From a virus, in the UHGV virus genome UHGV-0098265: 12,844 nucleotides of DNA; one strand, 5' to 3'. The notes beneath the pieces were generated by a model. That model was not told the DNA's origin, ran no database searches, and saw nothing but the letters and a program-made list of their open reading frames with translations. Position numbers and translations under genes: made by a program. Positions within the stretch are counted from its first letter, which is position 1. Each line of letters begins with the position of its first letter. Below, in pieces: positions 1,415 to 6,886 of this stretch.

Positions 1415-1705
1415 TCATCTTTTAACTCCATATACCGCCAATACCCGTTTCATCGCTGCACTCTGGCGACACTCCTTAAAAATCAGGTTCGTGCTCACCT
1501 TTCCTTCCCGTTCTTCCCTGGTAGCAAACCGGTAATACACCGTTCGCCAGACCTTACCATCAATGACCAGGATTCCTGCCCGCGCCATTTTAGCCGCAGC
1601 CTGATTTATGCTGGTTACTGTTGCGCCTGTTAGCGCGGCAACGTCCGGCGCACAGAAGCTATTATGCGTCCCCAGGTAATGAATAATTGCCTCTTTGCCC
1701 GTCAT
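1415..1705 (-). CDS. ren: Ren protein (lambda Ren, near-identical)
   Basis: 96 aa. Sequence MTGKEAIIHYLGTHNSFCAPDVAALTG... matches lambda Ren as recalled. ATGA overlap with the P stop. Confidence 0.93.
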   Translation of the reverse strand: MTGKEAIIHYLGTHNSFCAPDVAALTGATVTSINQAAAKMARAGILVIDGKVWRTVYYRFATREEREGKVSTNLIFKECRQSAAMKRVLAVYGVKR

Positions 1706-2403
1706 ACACTTGCTCCTTTCAGTCCGAACTTAGCTTTAATTTCTGCGATCTTCGCCAGCGCCTGAACACGATTTAGAGGTCTGCCGCCCATGACAGGAAG
1801 TTGTTTTACTGGTTCAGGTATCGTCTCACCACGGTTAATTCGCGCTGTCATACAGGTCAGTTCATCGGCAGCCTTGCGTCGTAATTCCGCGTCAGTCAGC
1901 GCATTGGCCCGCATGTTCTGGTACAGGTTGGTAACCAGCCAGTAGTGCGCGTTCGATTTCCACGGATAAGACTCTGCATCCGGATACAGGCCTCGCTTCC
2001 GGCAATACTCGTAAACCATATCAACCAGCTCGCTGACGTTTGGCAGTCCGGCGATAACGGATGCTTCTTCCCGGCACCATGCAACAAACTGCCCGGGTGA
2101 TGGAAGAAATGGTCGATTCTGCCGACGGGCTACGCGCATTCCTGCGTTAACCTGTTCCATCGAGGTGATCCCGTTTTCCCGGAAAGCCAGAACCCACTGG
2201 CGGCGGATTTCATTCAGTTCGTTCTGGTCCCGGTTAGCCAGACTCGCCGGGAAAGTTGCCAGTAACTGGCTGAACACACCGTTGATGATCTGCGCTACCT
2301 GTTGTACCTGCGGCTTTTCGTCGTACTGTTCCGGCATGTTGTTGGCGATCCGACGCATCTGCTCACGGTCAAAGTTAACCATCTGTGCGGCGATGTTTTT
2401 CAT
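1702..2403 (-). CDS. P: Replication protein P (DnaB helicase loader), lambda-like
   Basis: 233 aa, the same length as lambda P. Sequence MKNIAAQMVNFDREQMRRIANNMPEQYDE... matches lambda P as recalled. ATGA overlap with O. Confidence 0.95.
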   Translation of the reverse strand: MKNIAAQMVNFDREQMRRIANNMPEQYDEKPQVQQVAQIINGVFSQLLATFPASLANRDQNELNEIRRQWVLAFRENGITSMEQVNAGMRVARRQNRPFLPSPGQFVAWCREEASVIAGLPNVSELVDMVYEYCRKRGLYPDAESYPWKSNAHYWLVTNLYQNMRANALTDAELRRKAADELTCMTARINRGETIPEPVKQLPVMGGRPLNRVQALAKIAEIKAKFGLKGASV

Positions 2404-3338
2404 AAATCCACCCCGTAAATCCAGTCAGTGTTTGTCAGGTCGAGTTTTGGTTTTCCAGCTGTCACGCCAGCCTGTTGCTTGTTACGGTTGATTTCGAGCT
2501 GGGTCCACTTGTCGCGGAGTTTGGCCGGACTTAGCACGTTACCGGACCAGAAGTTGTCCTGGCATGCCCAGCGGAACAGCACGCACATGTCGCGGTGGTT
2601 ACGTCCGTCACGTTCACGCATCAGGCGGATATCGTTAGCCCACCCTGCAAAATTCGGTTTTCTGGCTGATGGTGCGATGGTCTTCACCATGTCAAACATC
2701 CACTCTGCGGCGGTCAGGTCTTCTGCTGTTCCCCACTTGCTGCCGCTCTGAATTGCAGCATCCGGTTTAACCACAGAAAGATCGTTTTCTGGCTGGTCAG
2801 AGGATTCGCCAGAATTCTCGGACGAATAATCTTTTCTTTTTTCTTTTGTAATAGTGTCTTTTGTGTCCCCCTGTTTTGAGGGATAGCAATCCCCTAATTT
2901 GAGGGATGTTTTATCCCTCGTTTTAGGGGATTTTCCCTCGTTTTGAGGGATGTCCCTCATTTTAGGGGAACCTCCCTCGTTTTGAGGGATGCACCATTCT
3001 GAGATGTTTTTATTTGGTCCAAACATGCCGCCTTGCTGCTTGATAATATTCATTCTGACGAGTTCTAACTTGGCTTCATTGCACCGTTTGACAGGTAACT
3101 TTGTAATCTCGCTAAGTTGAGAATCGGTGATTCTGTCCATTGGTTTATTCCACCCATAGGTTTTACGCAGAATGGCAAGCAGCACTTTAAACTGTCGCTT
3201 GGTCAGATCTGCGCCTGAATAAGCCTCAATCAGCATATTTGATAGTCTGGCGTAACCATCATCGAGATCTGCCACATTACGCTCCTGTTTGGCAAAGTTA
3301 CCTCTGCAGAAGTTGAGTATTTTTGCTGTATTTGTCAT
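2400..3338 (-). CDS. O: Replication initiator protein O, lambda-like, with a 13-aa insertion in the iteron-encoded linker
   Basis: 312 aa versus 299 aa in lambda. N- and C-terminal sequences match lambda O as recalled; the ori iterons are embedded in the coding sequence. Confidence 0.95.
   Translation of the reverse strand: MTNTAKILNFCRGNFAKQERNVADLDDGYARLSNMLIEAYSGADLTKRQFKVLLAILRKTYGWNKPMDRITDSQLSEITKLPVKRCNEAKLELVRMNIIKQQGGMFGPNKNISEWCIPQNEGGSPKMRDIPQNEGKSPKTRDKTSLKLGDCYPSKQGDTKDTITKEKRKDYSSENSGESSDQPENDLSVVKPDAAIQSGSKWGTAEDLTAAEWMFDMVKTIAPSARKPNFAGWANDIRLMRERDGRNHRDMCVLFRWACQDNFWSGNVLSPAKLRDKWTQLEINRNKQQAGVTAGKPKLDLTNTDWIYGVDL
2866..2990. repeat. Lambda-type replication origin: six iterons (about 18-19 bp palindromic TCCCTC-N-GAGGGA units), with an adjacent AT-rich unwinding region at about 2813-2862
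   Basis: Six tandem units read directly in the sequence (for example tccccctgttttgaggga, atcccctaatttgagggat, atccctcgttttaggggat, tccctcgttttgagggat, tccctcattttaggggaa, tccctcgttttgagggat), next to an A/T-rich tract cttttcttttttcttttgtaatagtg. Confidence 0.9.
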
Positions 3339-3370
3339 AATGACTCCTGTGGATTGATCCAGTAATGATC

Positions 3371-3667
3371 TCAGAATTCCATCTGGATTTGTTCAGAACG
3401 CTCGGTTGCCGCCGGGCGTTTTTTATTGATGATTTCATCAAGCGCATACTTAAAAGCCCTGCTAATCGGACTGATGTCTGATGCCATTCCGAAAGCACAC
3501 AGGACCGAAGCAATAAACCGCCAGTCCGTTCTGCTTATCTTCGATTCATGACAGCCAATCATCTTTGCCAGACCGCGCTGGGTAATAGCTGACAGATTGA
3601 TAAGTAAATCTGTTTCTGCGCGATCAACGTCACGCTGTGATAGTTTGCTGTAACTTGTTCTTTCCAT
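3371..3667 (-). CDS. cII: CII-like transcriptional activator (C-terminus identical to lambda CII, divergent N-terminal part)
   Basis: 98 aa. C-terminal NKKRPAATERSEQIQMEF matches lambda CII; the gene sits between cro/nutR and O. Confidence 0.85.
   Translation of the reverse strand: MERTSYSKLSQRDVDRAETDLLINLSAITQRGLAKMIGCHESKISRTDWRFIASVLCAFGMASDISPISRAFKYALDEIINKKRPAATERSEQIQMEF
3653..3666 (+). promoter_or_regulatory. Candidate CII-binding site and PRE -35 region (TTGC-N6-TTGT)
   Basis: TTGCtgtaacTTGT lies on the strand reading toward cI and overlaps the 5' end of cII, the same arrangement as lambda PRE (TTGC-N6-TTGC). Confidence 0.35.
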
Positions 3668-3731
3668 TTCTTACTATTTCCATAGGTAAATAATCACTAA
3701 TACTCATCTTTCGATGAGTGCTTAATTAGTT

Positions 3732-3766
3732 ACCGCGTTGTCGGCGGTGCAGATTGATAAAGAGCG
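3732..3766 (-). promoter_or_regulatory. nutR (boxA CGCTCTTTATCA plus boxB hairpin ACCGCCGACAACGCGGT, P22-type)
   Basis: Read on the minus strand just downstream of the cro stop. boxA matches the consensus and boxB matches the P22 nutR boxB as recalled. Confidence 0.65.
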
Positions 3767-3773
3767 GTGTTAC

Positions 3774-4001
3774 TTATGCAGCCAGAAGGTTCTTTTTACT
3801 TATTTCAAGCATTTCGCTTGCTTGATATTTGCCACCAGAAATCTCTTCGATTTTTGAGGCGTATTTCGTTTTCCCAAAAAACTCAGTCTTAGGGAGGAAG
3901 CCGTTTTTGAGCCACTTATAGACAGCCCTTTCGCTAACTCCACAAGCCTTCGCAACTTCAGGTATGCCGACACCTTTAATCGGCTCATCAAGAGTTTGCA
4001 T
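3774..4001 (-). CDS. cro: Cro-like HTH repressor
   Basis: ORF track 3774..4034. An internal ATG at 4001 is preceded by AAAAGGA and lies downstream of the predicted PR transcription start, whereas the 4034 start lies upstream of it. HTH-like GIPEVAKACGVSERAVYKWL. Divergent to cI. Confidence 0.75.
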   Translation of the reverse strand: MQTLDEPIKGVGIPEVAKACGVSERAVYKWLKNGFLPKTEFFGKTKYASKIEEISGGKYQASEMLEISKKNLLAA

Positions 4002-4079
4002 AGGAATATCCTTTTTCGTACTTTCAGTACGCATTATGATTGAACTGAAAGTTTTTGCAAGTGCTTTAGTATCGTACTC
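4002..4079. promoter_or_regulatory. OR operator region with divergent PR (toward cro) and PRM (toward cI)
   Basis: 78-bp intergenic region between divergent cro and cI. Dyad symmetries CGTAC-TTTCA-GTACG and ACTTTCAGT...ACTGAAAGT; palindromic TTGCAA hexamer with a 17-nt spacer to ATAAT on the cro strand; TAGTAT about 7 nt before the cI ATG suggests a leaderless cI mRNA from PRM. Confidence 0.6.
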
Positions 4080-4787
4080 ATGGTTCAGAATGAAAAAGTG
4101 CGCAAAGAATTCGCCCAGCGGCTAGCGCAAGCCTGTAAAGAAGCTGGTCTTGATGAACATGGTAGGGGAATGGCTATAGCCCGTGCCCTTTCTCTTTCGT
4201 CCAAAGGCGTTAGCAAATGGTTTAATGCTGAGTCTTTACCGCGTCAGGAAAAAATGAATGCGCTTGCGAAATTTCTAAACGTTGATGTTGTTTGGCTTCA
4301 GCACGGCACTTCGTTAAATGGAGCGAATGATGAAGATACTCTTTCATTTGTTGGCAAATTAAAAAAAGGGTTAGTGCGCGTGGTTGGTGAGGCAATTCTT
4401 GGTGTTGATGGTGCCATCGAGATGACCGAAGAACGCGATGGGTGGCTCAAGATTTATAGCGATGATCCAGATGCCTTTGGTCTTCGTGTGAAAGGAGACA
4501 GCATGTGGCCCAGAATAAAATCAGGAGAATATGTACTCATTGAGCCTAACACCAAAGTATTCCCGGGTGATGAGGTGTTTGTCAGAACCATCGAAGGACA
4601 CAACATGATCAAGATTCTTGGCTATGACAGAGATGGAGAATACCAATTTACAAGCATCAACCAGGACCACAGACCAATAACGTTGCCTTATCATCAAGTA
4701 GCAAAGGTGGAGTATGTGGCTGGTATTCTGAAGCAATCTCGCCATCTGGATGACATCGAGGCAAGGGAGTGGCTGAGAAATTATTAA
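4080..4787 (+). CDS. cI: CI-type prophage repressor (N-terminal HTH, C-terminal S24/LexA-like autopeptidase domain); non-lambda immunity specificity
   Basis: 235 aa. C-terminal GDSMWPRI motif (Ser nucleophile) plus a downstream Lys, typical of RecA-stimulated self-cleaving repressors; divergent from cro. Confidence 0.9.
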   Translation: MVQNEKVRKEFAQRLAQACKEAGLDEHGRGMAIARALSLSSKGVSKWFNAESLPRQEKMNALAKFLNVDVVWLQHGTSLNGANDEDTLSFVGKLKKGLVRVVGEAILGVDGAIEMTEERDGWLKIYSDDPDAFGLRVKGDSMWPRIKSGEYVLIEPNTKVFPGDEVFVRTIEGHNMIKILGYDRDGEYQFTSINQDHRPITLPYHQVAKVEYVAGILKQSRHLDDIEAREWLRNY

Positions 4788-4911
4788 TACCAATAGCATA
4801 GAGACGAAAATGCGACAGGTTTTAGGTACAAATCATAACCCTATCCACAAACAACGTTGTAAATATACACATAAGACTATTGTAAAAAAAGCTCTATCCC
4901 AGTAAATGCGG

Positions 4912-4940
4912 TTGCAAAATGGGTTGATCGAGCATATATA
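4912..4940 (+). promoter_or_regulatory. Candidate sigma70 promoter for the accessory cassette (TTGCAA-17-TATATA)
   Basis: Hexamers read by eye with 17-nt spacing, about 15 nt upstream of the GTG start at 4954. Confidence 0.3.
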
Positions 4941-4953
4941 AGGAGTATAGTTA

Positions 4954-5316
4954 GTGACCCAAGATGAAACGAATGAATATCTGAAAACCTTAGCATTGGT
5001 TCCAAGTGCAGAGGCCTCCGCAGAGGAGAAGCAGATATATAGCGTCAAAAAGGCTGTAATCGGTCTGATTGAATTTGTTACAACCAGTCTTGAAGAGCTT
5101 GGAATTGAAGGGTTGCATGAGTTAACAAACCCATCTCTTGACGAATTAGATGCAGAGCTAGAGAAACTTGACCAAAAAGCTGATGCAATCAATGAACTAA
5201 ACTTAAAGCAAATCATCATATTTGCACAGATTTTAATCAAAAACATAAGAGAAAAGAATCCTGATTTGTGCTCTGAGGGATCAAAACTACTCAAGAGTGC
5301 TAAATCGGGTCTTTGA
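4954..5316 (+). CDS. Hypothetical acidic helical protein, 120 aa, in the rex position downstream of cI
   Basis: GTG start preceded by TAAGGAG at 8-nt spacing; AT-rich relative to cI; no intrinsic terminator between cI and this gene; no homolog recognised. Confidence 0.7.
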   Translation: MTQDETNEYLKTLALVPSAEASAEEKQIYSVKKAVIGLIEFVTTSLEELGIEGLHELTNPSLDELDAELEKLDQKADAINELNLKQIIIFAQILIKNIREKNPDLCSEGSKLLKSAKSGL

Positions 5317-5339
5317 CACTTACAGAGCGGAGGATAAAC

Positions 5340-5462
5340 ATGTCTAGAACTGAACATATCAAAGATATGCTTAAAAGTGCGGATCGAATCAATCAGATTA
5401 TTGCTGAAATGAAGCAGAGAAAAGCAGAAATGCTAGCATCAAAGCTTCCAATGGCAGCATAA
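5340..5462 (+). CDS. Hypothetical 40-aa basic helical peptide (MSRTEHIKDMLKSADRINQIIAEMKQRKAEMLASKLPMAA)
   Basis: ATG preceded by GGAGGATAAACA; follows the 120-aa gene after a 23-nt gap; immediately followed by an intrinsic terminator. Below the ORF-track size cutoff. Confidence 0.55.
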   Translation: MSRTEHIKDMLKSADRINQIIAEMKQRKAEMLASKLPMAA

Positions 5463-5470
5463 CCAAAAAC

Positions 5471-5493
5471 ACCCGCTTCGGCGGGTTTTCTTA
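5471..5493 (+). terminator. Intrinsic terminator ending the cI-accessory cassette transcript (tImm-like)
   Basis: CCCGC-ttcg-GCGGG hairpin followed by TTTTCTT. Confidence 0.8.
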
Positions 5494-5739
5494 TTCCCCT
5501 AAAAAGATCAAACAACTCCACATTAGCTTTTTTGTGCCCACAGTTTTCTACCTAGCAGTTTTCTTTGCCTCCCGATCCACCATCTAAAAACACATAACCA
5601 ATTGTATTTATTGAAAAATAAATAGATACAACTTGCTAAACCACGCAATTCTGATCCCTGCCGCATAACCTTCATCCGCAACATTTACAAAAATAAATTT
5701 CCTTATATATCAAAATCATATTTCGTAGAGTTAATAAAT

Positions 5740-5800
5740 CATAAACGATTCGTACCAATAGTTCTTGATAATATCGAACTACTGGTTCATTATTATCGCC
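5740..5800 (+). promoter_or_regulatory. Candidate PL promoter and OL operators
   Basis: TTGATA with 17-18 nt spacing to CATTAT/ATTATT, about 45 nt upstream of nutL boxA. Shares TTCGTAC and ATCGNACT motifs with the OR region. Confidence 0.4.
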
Positions 5801-5839
5801 ATCAGCAGGACGTTGGAAGCCAAACGGAACAGATTGGCG

Positions 5840-5874
5840 GGCTCTTTAACTTCGATGGGGCGCTGACAAAGCGC
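5840..5874 (+). promoter_or_regulatory. nutL (boxA GGCTCTTTAAC plus boxB hairpin GCGCTGACAAAGCGC, P22-type)
   Basis: boxB is identical to the P22 nutL boxB as recalled, with a boxA-like element 10 nt upstream; located in the leader upstream of N. Confidence 0.7.
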
Positions 5875-6053
5875 AAACAGATACCAAACGAGATGGGTTT
5901 GGCGGTGTGGTGAAGGGTTCATGGACGGGAATATGTCGCACGTAAAGCGGCGAGGCCTGCGGGACTATTGCCGAATTGAAGTAGGCCGAAACAGGTCGAA
6001 ATGGGTCTCCCACCTACCTCACCACCAAAGCCATTTTACATGAGGAAAACATC

Positions 6054-6362
6054 ATGACGGTAATCGTGTACGGGAAATCAACATTTACAGGAAATGCCAA
6101 AACTCGCCGTCATGAGCGGCGCAGAAAGCTGGCTATCGAGCGTGATGCTATATGCAACATCATCGATTCGATCTTCGGTACAGACAGTGATGAACCTGTT
6201 CAGAAAGAACCGAGAAAGCGTTTAAGCCTTTCTGAAAAAGCAATATCACTCGGCAACATTCGTAACCAAAATACCGACGAATGCAATGGAAGCATTTGCC
6301 TGCCAAACGTAGCCATCTACGTGGCAGGCTATCGGAAATCAAAACAACTGACGGCGAGGTAA
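6054..6362 (+). CDS. N: N-type transcription antiterminator with a P22-type arginine-rich motif
   Basis: 102 aa. N-terminal GNAKTRRHERRRKLAIERD matches the P22 N boxB-binding peptide as recalled. GAGGA Shine-Dalgarno 7 nt upstream; positioned downstream of PL/nutL. Confidence 0.85.
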   Translation: MTVIVYGKSTFTGNAKTRRHERRRKLAIERDAICNIIDSIFGTDSDEPVQKEPRKRLSLSEKAISLGNIRNQNTDECNGSICLPNVAIYVAGYRKSKQLTAR

Positions 6363-6419
6363 TTATGGATATTTCATGTATTGAACAATTACTAATTGAG
6401 AAAACGAAAGAAATGCTTG

Positions 6420-6659
6420 ATGTATTGGACAAAAAAAATATCTGAGTTAAAAGATACACCCGCGACACAACTTATTCTCGAACGTAGTCGAAATAAATTC
6501 TTAGAGTTAAGCCCTGACGTTCAAAATATAGCATCTAAACTGCTGGCTACGTTGATTGAGAGGAATGCATTGTTATCGATGTCATCAGATGAACGAAAAA
6601 AACTGACGAACGAAGATGTTGCAACCATCCGCCAGGCATTCGAAATTTTGTTCTCTTAA
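6420..6659 (+). CDS. Hypothetical small protein; frame is interrupted upstream at an A8 tract (alternative: frameshifted about 97-aa gene starting at 6365)
   Basis: ORF track 6396..6659 begins at a TTG. An ATG at 6365 with a GAGGT Shine-Dalgarno opens a 26-codon frame that ends just after the A8 tract at 6431-6438; the long frame continues in +1. Confidence 0.45.
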   Translation: MYWTKKISELKDTPATQLILERSRNKFLELSPDVQNIASKLLATLIERNALLSMSSDERKKLTNEDVATIRQAFEILFS

Positions 6660-6824
6660 TTACTTACTGTTTATTCTGATAATCTCATCAAGAATTTTTT
6701 CATAAACAACTGTGCTTGGCTTTCCGTCAATGCCAGGGGCAAGATTACCGGCTCTGATAAGCTCAACAATAATCTGTTGAGCGGCTTCGTGTGGGTTGGT
6801 TTTGGGATTAACAATATCTGTCAT
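6660..6824 (-). CDS. Hypothetical 54-aa protein (MTDIVNPKTNPHEAAQQIIVELIRAG...), antisense to the PL operon
   Basis: Internal ATG at 6824 within track ORF 6660..6929, preceded by GAAGGG; two 14-bp direct repeats lie immediately upstream; its stop abuts the stop of the convergent plus-strand gene. Confidence 0.5.
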   Translation of the reverse strand: MTDIVNPKTNPHEAAQQIIVELIRAGNLAPGIDGKPSTVVYEKILDEIIRINSK

Positions 6825-6837
6825 AACAAAGCCCTTC

Positions 6838-6886
6838 TTTTGACTGTGGAAACAACAGTCTACCCATTTCCTTTGACTGTGGAAAG
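6838..6886. repeat. Two direct repeats of TTTGACTGTGGAAA spaced 35 bp apart, upstream of the minus-strand 54-aa gene
   Basis: Identical 14-mers at 6838-6851 and 6873-6886 read directly; each contains a TTGACT hexamer. Confidence 0.55.

Follow-up and report, generated by a model that had tools for sequence, protein, structure and literature searches.

In lambdoid prophages, the interval between the repressor gene cI and the antiterminator gene N is the oldest known home of prophage exclusion, represented by rexAB of phage lambda. It also houses BstA, and most of the cargo found there is functionally unassigned. RexB is a polytopic membrane protein, and the promoter pLIT expresses rexB alone. 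The cI-n interval has been described as a mosaic hotspot with RexAB and BstA that is highly transcribed in lysogens (PMC8585504). The gene of BstA, an abortive infection protein of prophage BTP1, carries the self-immunity element aba, which consists of the first 34 base pairs (bp) of bstA and 29 bp upstream (PMC8585504). We analysed the corresponding slot in the virus genome UHGV-0098265. The window, i.e. the whole stretch of 12,844 nucleotides (nt), is the immunity region of a lambdoid prophage in the orientation of lambda leftward transcription, and the slot holds two small genes, which we call A and B. Positions refer to the window, and genes and signals are on its plus strand unless noted otherwise. 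The order is cI, cargo, terminator, candidate pL and N, co-oriented with cI, and in map position and orientation A and B are therefore identical to rexAB. An original prediction, made from the DNA letters, had placed the two genes in the rex position, directly 3' of cI and on the same strand, and this was borne out.

The pairing of the two genes was followed in 76 loci that encode an A homologue, to which two more pairs, from Aeromonas phage AsXd-1 and from contig L079, were added later. A B-like open reading frame (ORF) followed A in all 76 loci and in both later pairs. These ORFs encode 33-42 amino acids (aa), start with ATG and lie 11-69 nt 3' of A, with a GGAG-type Shine-Dalgarno sequence in almost all cases. 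The pairing was kept where A is only 25-28% identical, i.e. in L018, the L050 group, AsXd-1 (whose B reads MNKTLQNLLLNSYRLRGLIDDLNERAAKKKPVKKAA) and L079. The only disrupted allele seen was in L065, where a nonsense codon interrupts a distant A variant (4240-4252 of that locus) and the downstream B is intact. Comparison of synonymous (pS) and nonsynonymous (pN) differences gave a saturated pS of 0.78 against a pN of 0.31 for A, and a saturated pS of 0.64 against a pN of 0.30 for B, indicating purifying selection on both.

These data bear on the possibility that A and B are chance or decaying frames without a function. The annotation does not go beyond "hypothetical protein" (RefSeq WP_000189752.1 for A and WP_256204659.1 for B), and the exact cassette is rare in E. 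coli, being present in 4 of 5426 complete genomes. However, both frames are under purifying selection, their ribosome-binding sites are conserved, and the pairing is conserved over Enterobacterales and Aeromonas at 25-80% identity. In contrast, a 174-aa ORF antisense to the cassette (4833-5357, minus strand) lacks conservation and was therefore rejected. The conservation data refute the chance-ORF explanation, to which we give virtually no credence. We conclude from these results that A and B are real genes under purifying selection and that their pairing is universal in the loci collected.

Gene A (4954-5316) encodes an acidic cytoplasmic protein of 120 aa with an isoelectric point (pI) of 4.6. 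It starts with GTG, which is preceded by the Shine-Dalgarno sequence TAAGGAG (4939-4945) at a spacing of 8 nt. The AlphaFold2 model of the protein is all-helical and forms a four-helix bundle (predicted local distance difference test, pLDDT, 72-73). No transmembrane segment was found in A, where the 19-residue Kyte-Doolittle average reaches at most 1.17. The family has the motif G-[IM]-x-G-L-x-E-L-T-N-P-S-L-D-x-L, and G50, P60 and S61 are invariant across the alignment. Cys106, the sole cysteine of A in the window, is near-invariant in the family. A word-indexed search of 5.8 billion proteins gave 21 clusters of A homologues, with clusters from Serratia, Pectobacterium, Edwardsiella, Pantoea, Photorhabdus, Raoultella and Salmonella houtenae. 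In a profile search of 1.84 billion representatives 30 clusters were found, all of 59-135 aa, and none of these 30 was a fused or solo version.

Gene B (5340-5462) is the frame that follows A in all related loci. It starts with ATG, 6 nt after the Shine-Dalgarno sequence GGAGG (5329-5333), and encodes a basic peptide of 40 aa with a pI of 9.8, so that the two proteins are opposite in charge. B is predicted to be helical and amphipathic. Its hydrophobic moment over residues 7-24 is 0.63, with hydrophobic residues at positions 7, 10/11, 14, 17, 20/21 and 24; no membrane segment was detected (maximal 19-residue Kyte-Doolittle average −0.07). Its homologues, of 31-46 aa, form 41 clusters. Ala-Ala is the C-terminus of every B, preceded by lysine in nearly all of them and by methionine in the B of the window. 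The codons of the terminal alanines vary freely between GCA, GCT, GCC and GCG, and both TAA and TGA are used as the stop codon. Selection therefore acts on the residues and not on the DNA. In E. coli, ssrA-like ClpXP degrons depend critically on a terminal Ala-Ala (PMC10862746). The G+C content is 0.388 in A and 0.366 in B, compared to 0.451 in cI. The description of A in the original prediction as an acidic, helical protein of 120 aa with a GTG start and TAAGGAG, of B as a basic, helical peptide of 40 aa with GGAGG, and of both genes as AT-rich relative to cI was thus confirmed, and both genes lie where it had placed them.

Neither protein had been recognised in that prediction, and our searches gave the same picture. 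No relative of A or B was found in Pfam, NCBIfam or PADLOC, nor a solved structure by sequence search. When PHROGs were included, the sole non-marginal family match for the two proteins was to PHROG 16322 (1.7e-6), whose function is unassigned. The family profile matched only designed proteins among the solved structures (E about 0.004), and Foldseek with the A model gave no significant match in PDB or BFVD.

The best natural fold match of the modelled A is YmoB/TomB, to which it has no sequence relationship. The pair might work in lysogenic conversion like TomB-Hha, with the acidic bundle modulating its basic helical partner on a host regulator or nucleoid protein, by which stress responses, biofilm formation or virulence would be changed. 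TomB-Hha and YmoB-YmoA have the same operon layout as A/B, an acidic protein of about 120 aa being followed some 25 nt downstream by a small basic helical protein, and the modelled A is, like TomB/YmoB, an antiparallel four-helix bundle of this size. Both families also have a conserved cysteine near the start of the last helix, which is Cys106 in A and the C-terminal cysteine in TomB/YmoB (PMC5155140). However, the conserved, buried Cys18 in helix 1 that defines TomB/YmoB is absent from A, and Hha has about 72 aa and a conserved Cys18 (PMC5155140), whereas B has 40 aa and no cysteine. TomB-Hha is also a chromosomal core locus next to acrB and not a phage moron. Membership of A and B in the TomB/Hha families was rejected, as hhalign of the A profile against TomB gave a probability of 0.1, B against Hha gave nothing, and there was no Pfam YbaJ match. 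As modelled, A is TomB-like in fold and operon layout only, and a function of the TomB-Hha type appears distinctly improbable.

The limits of the cargo were determined by blastn of the window against L017, which is an Stx2a phage, and L051. Homology stops at 4782, in the last codons of cI, and resumes at 5558, and different cargo lies in between. This defines a replaceable segment of 775 bp (4783-5557), and the limits of 4800-5500 given in the original prediction have to be replaced by these junctions. The segment is bordered on the left by the cI-type repressor gene (4080-4787), encoding a helix-turn-helix domain and an S24 peptidase (Pfam Peptidase_S24 4.2e-16, HTH_3 1.2e-5; S24 family peptidase in RefSeq). 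The right-hand border gene of the slot is N (6054-6362; Pfam N_peptide 2.8e-38). Upstream of N, a consensus scan found a candidate pL, TTGATA-17 nt-CATTAT (5765-5793), inside a block (5558-5914) that is common to related lambdoid phages. The plus strand carries the S24/HTH repressor gene cI, A, B and N, and the minus strand ninB, ren, P, O, cII and cro. A perfect palindrome, CGTACTTTCAGTACG, is present at 4017-4031, some 50 bp before the start codon of cI (4080) and at the 5' end of a cro-side ORF on the minus strand (3774-4034; the RefSeq start gives a shorter frame of 228 nt). It was flagged in the terminator scan and looks more like a repressor operator than a terminator.

In Stx2a-converting phages that have the same cI allele (97% DNA identity), the slot is occupied by a DUF3024 protein and an NYN-domain protein. 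The DUF3024 protein corresponds to the PADLOC candidate PDC-S43 (7e-42). In L017 (Stx2_EH1965, LC616032), the DUF3024 protein and a 285-aa NYN protein are encoded at 1712-3149 of that locus, at the slot equivalent to 4783-5557, and they look like another uncharacterised candidate defence pair. The slot of L051 holds a distant A/B variant. The same variant is also found in prophages of lambda immunity, whose cI ends in ...VIASQWPEETFG, where it physically replaces rexAB and extends to the lambda tImm terminator. This combination was observed in 32 of the 5426 complete E. coli genomes. The distant variant consists of 126 aa and 33 aa, its A is 28% identical to gene A, and it is found in L050-L064 (IMG/VR loci) at about 3900-4600.

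In 70 of the 76 loci, an S24 repressor is encoded on the same strand 44-668 nt upstream of the pair, and three more loci are on contigs too short to tell. The original prediction had proposed to look for the pair downstream of the repressor in related prophages, and there it recurs. The upstream repressors of the 70 loci fall into 27 clusters below 70% identity. The cassette has therefore been reshuffled among immunity types, yet it keeps to its slot. Four exceptions were found. In Pantoea, the pair is at the end of a prophage, between a tail-fibre gene and a UmuC-like gene; in S. houtenae, it follows a pyocin/colicin S gene and the immunity gene of the latter. Integrase-DinI and a tail fibre flank the pair in Aeromonas phage AsXd-1, and in L079 it is found upstream of tail genes. 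The upstream element and the terminator are kept with the pair in Pantoea and S. houtenae; for AsXd-1 and L079, the comparison covered the A-B pairing only. SOS-related neighbours away from repressors (DinI, a UmuC-like polymerase and pyocin/colicin S) were located in L078 (AsXd-1) at 3386-4502, in L010 at 5001-6866 and in L012 at 1616-5497.

The association with repressors may point to a role of A/B in tuning the prophage switch or the host SOS response and proteolysis, and not in acting on other phages. The pair would act on repressor cleavage, on fragment clearance or on RecA/ClpXP, and would set the rate of spontaneous or damage-dependent induction, and the Ala-Ala end of B would be a decoy or competitor for ClpXP. 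This would resemble the lysogeny-to-lysis role proposed for RexA/RexB, or the action of DinI on RecA. It agrees with the finding that 70 of the 76 pairs follow a LexA-like S24 repressor, drawn from 27 repressor clusters, and with the SOS-linked genes in the exceptions, which are DinI in AsXd-1 and S. houtenae, the UmuC-like gene in Pantoea and pyocin/colicin S in S. houtenae. A switch-modulating role of RexAB is proposed in a preprint (bioRxiv 10.1101/2021.04.19.439022), and in S. aureus ClpX is reported to be required to complete the inactivation of CI (PMC10584840). Against this, the cassette is joined to many unrelated repressor alleles and persists away from repressors, so it cannot depend on one specific repressor. 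In addition, the slot between cI and N gathers unrelated cargo in general, so the adjacency to repressors may reflect the hotspot only. The SOS theme may be a coincidence, because DinI and UmuDC are common prophage morons. We regard such a tuning function as possible but doubtful. It is the main rival of an exclusion function, to which we return below; the TomB-Hha-like function and a function in the establishment of lysogeny are weaker.

The occurrence of the cassette was followed in further collections. The B cluster was recorded on 446 contigs, and 426 index blocks of the assembly collection list the variant of Klebsiella pneumoniae. No match was obtained when the phage collection was searched with the cassette by megablast or plasmids by tblastn, and a scan of genome contigs found the cassette in E. 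albertii only. In E. coli 214-4 (NZ_CP025840.1; L001 10261-12686), the IS66-family element ISEc43 is inserted between the terminator region of the cassette and N, and this insertion probably severs the early leftward operon from pL.

The expression signals of the cassette were then compared. A scan detected no terminator-like site between cI, which ends at 4787, and A, in agreement with the original prediction. Any cI transcript would therefore also reach A and B. This co-orientation without an intervening terminator would also suit a function at the establishment of lysogeny or in early infection, and not in the stable lysogen, if A and B were transcribed with cI from a cII-dependent promoter and aided the incoming phage by blocking, e.g., a host defence or a protease. 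A precedent for small helical phage protease inhibitors is lambda CIII, which inhibits the host protease FtsH. However, the cassette has its own conserved promoter-like element, it is kept as a unit at locations other than cI, and it lies upstream of the candidate pL and hence outside the early leftward operon. We consider an establishment function highly unlikely.

The cassette itself has a candidate sigma-70 promoter, TTGCAA (4912-4917)-17 nt-TATATA (4935-4940), which was compared in 14 diverged loci. The −35 hexamer was found at a fixed distance from TATATA in all of them, in the form TTGnAA at 17 nt in 12 loci and as CTTGAA one base further upstream in two, and the sequence of the spacer was variable. 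A fixed distance with a variable spacer is the signature of a real sigma-70 promoter. The −10 region overlaps the Shine-Dalgarno sequence of A, and a transcript starting at about 4947 would therefore lack the ribosome-binding site of A. Hence, A is probably translated from RNA that reads through from cI, and the promoter of the cassette may serve chiefly B. The original prediction had proposed this promoter, and the 14-locus comparison supports it, but that it drives both genes is doubtful since its −10 lies on the Shine-Dalgarno sequence of A. The consensus scan also gave another promoter-like match that overlaps the first, TTGATC-16 nt-TATAGT (4924-4951). Its start site would fall inside A, about half of the aligned loci have its −35, and its status is uncertain.

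The −10, the Shine-Dalgarno sequence, the spacer and the start codon of A form a hyper-conserved block of 23 nt, ATATATAAGGAGTATAGTTAGTG (4934-4956). In the locus comparison, 17-22 of its 23 bases are identical where the A-coding DNA is only 52-74% identical. No RNA structure that accounts for this conservation was found, as there is neither a conserved leader structure nor a stable fold between cI and A, and an Rfam search gave no match near the gathering score. By analogy to the aba element of BstA, the block might also be a control element at the DNA level or in translation.

The scan found the intrinsic terminator that closes the cassette at 5471-5495, as originally predicted. It consists of a GC-rich stem of 6 bp with a UUCG loop (ACCCGC-TTCG-GCGGGT) followed by the T-rich tail TTTTCTTATT, with a free energy of −11 kcal/mol and a z-score of −2.0. 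All loci examined have a terminator after B, whose stem differs in sequence. At 5531-5547, the sequence agcttttttgtgcccac is similar to the T-tract and the 3' flank of terminators found after B elsewhere (gccgggttttttgtgccc), but it is stemless; it may be a relic of earlier cargo. In many loci there are 250-670 nt between the repressor and A. Small ORFs in these long gaps, which are absent from the window, encode a 34-aa YoaK-like protein and a 39-aa frame (L007-L009, 4607-4711; L002, 4580-4699; L068, 3217-3336). Also absent from the window is a recurrent motif, TGCCGATTTTATGGnTATAT, which precedes A by about 150 nt in L010, L014, L023, L031, L032 and L044.

The original prediction had read the cassette, from its position, as a strong candidate for an exclusion, defence or lysogenic-conversion module. 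Its reading of position and architecture is borne out, and the further step to exclusion or defence is inferred from position. The cassette is a reasonable but unproven candidate for a new module of phage exclusion or lysogen fitness. The function that we prefer, tentatively and with clear reservations, is that of a lysogen-expressed two-protein exclusion or abortive-infection module, which is toxin-antitoxin-like, replaces RexAB and in which the ClpXP-labile B restrains A. The pair would be made in the lysogen mainly by read-through from the repressor promoter, because no terminator intervenes and only RNA from the cI side carries the ribosome-binding site of A. The promoter of the cassette would contribute further RNA, perhaps mainly for B. 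B would dock with its hydrophobic face on A and keep it inactive, and B would be short-lived as its ssrA-like terminal Ala-Ala would feed it to ClpXP. When a superinfecting phage stops the expression of the host or the prophage or perturbs ClpXP, B would be depleted and A freed. The freed A would then act on a target, and the infection would fail. The model draws on the slot and the ClpXP literature, on the pairing, the opposite charges, the amphipathic B and the nonsense allele of L065. A loss of A with an intact B, as in L065, is the direction that would be tolerated if A is the harmful partner.

Several points weigh against an exclusion module. L065 is the only knockout seen. A terminal Ala-Ala does not suffice for degradation by itself, and lysine at −3 is not preferred in ssrA-like degrons (PMC10862746). 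No toxin, nuclease, pore or nucleoside triphosphatase (NTPase) domain is recognisable in A, and its conserved motif looks more like a helix cap than a catalytic site. PADLOC-DB v2 gave no convincing model for A, the best matches being AbiEi (0.004) and JetA (0.011), which were short and marginal, and no match for B or for the distant A variant. A and B are also without membrane helices, unlike RexB. That the pair is almost always next to an S24 repressor would be explained equally well by a role in the repressor or induction circuit.

A more specific form of the exclusion model is that A/B represents a new family of minimal, non-enzymatic prophage exclusion systems that, in lambdoid prophages from Enterobacterales and Aeromonas, functionally stands in for RexAB. 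The effector, a four-helix bundle, would be kept in check by a peptide of 33-42 aa, with Lys-Ala-Ala as a fuse timed by ClpXP. We consider this rather unlikely. If an exclusion function is true, A/B would be an unusually small defence system without an enzymatic domain, and it would allow a direct test of whether protease-timed peptides gate abortive infection. If the pair tunes induction instead, it would be relevant to the control of the switching rate in lambdoid prophages. In either case, A/B is defined here as a coherent, widespread and tightly paired two-gene cargo family. Its obligate A-B pairing, the invariant C-terminal Ala-Ala of B and the hyper-conserved block at the start of A are testable features. 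The natural replacement series in otherwise identical phages, comprising rexAB, the DUF3024 and NYN pair, and the near and distant A/B, provides ready-made controls. Searches of the literature for the accession numbers and for the slot gave no paper on the A/B family, and an earlier description in Brenes and Laub 2025 cannot be excluded.

The comparison with described systems places A/B as follows. RexAB and A/B each consist of two genes that no terminator separates from cI, and each has an internal or own promoter-like element that may favour the second gene, pLIT being the one to compare in lambda. The proteins have no sequence similarity, and no match of A/B to the Rex proteins was found in Pfam, PHROGs or PADLOC. 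They also differ in size, with 120 and 40 aa in A/B and 279 and 144 aa in RexA and RexB. Since A and B have no membrane helices, their mechanism cannot be a RexB-type ion channel. BstA shares the slot 3' of the repressor, which is conserved in many prophages, and like A/B it has a Rho-independent terminator of its own and presumably shares the promoter of the repressor (PMC8585504). The strongly conserved DNA at the 5' end of bstA can be likened to the 23-nt block, but by analogy only, and BstA, of about 300 aa, is one protein unrelated to A or B.

Toxin-antitoxin pairs of the RnlA-RnlB and LsoA-LsoB type have, like A/B, two adjacent small genes with the larger one first. The adjacent genes of A/B co-occurred in all 76 loci with a gap of 11-69 nt. 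Pairs with a labile antitoxin share with A/B a smaller partner with a plausible degradation signal and the carriage on mobile elements. However, A has no known toxin fold or catalytic motif, and B is far below the typical size of a protein antitoxin.

Prophage morons are independent units with their own promoter-like element and terminator, have a lower GC content than their neighbours and are present or absent among near-identical phages (PMC3594210). The A/B segment has these traits at the sequence level. A promoter-like element was found in 14 loci and a terminator after B, and the segment is exchanged at sharp junctions between homologous phages, with a shift in GC from 0.45 to 0.38. On this evidence, we assign 4783-5557 as a moron, i.e. 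a horizontally mobile, self-contained accessory unit in the cI-N hotspot, where the term moron denotes an architectural class and not a function. A/B is a two-gene moron. Taken together, a moron in a rex-type slot is known, and what is new are A and B, which belong to no described family.

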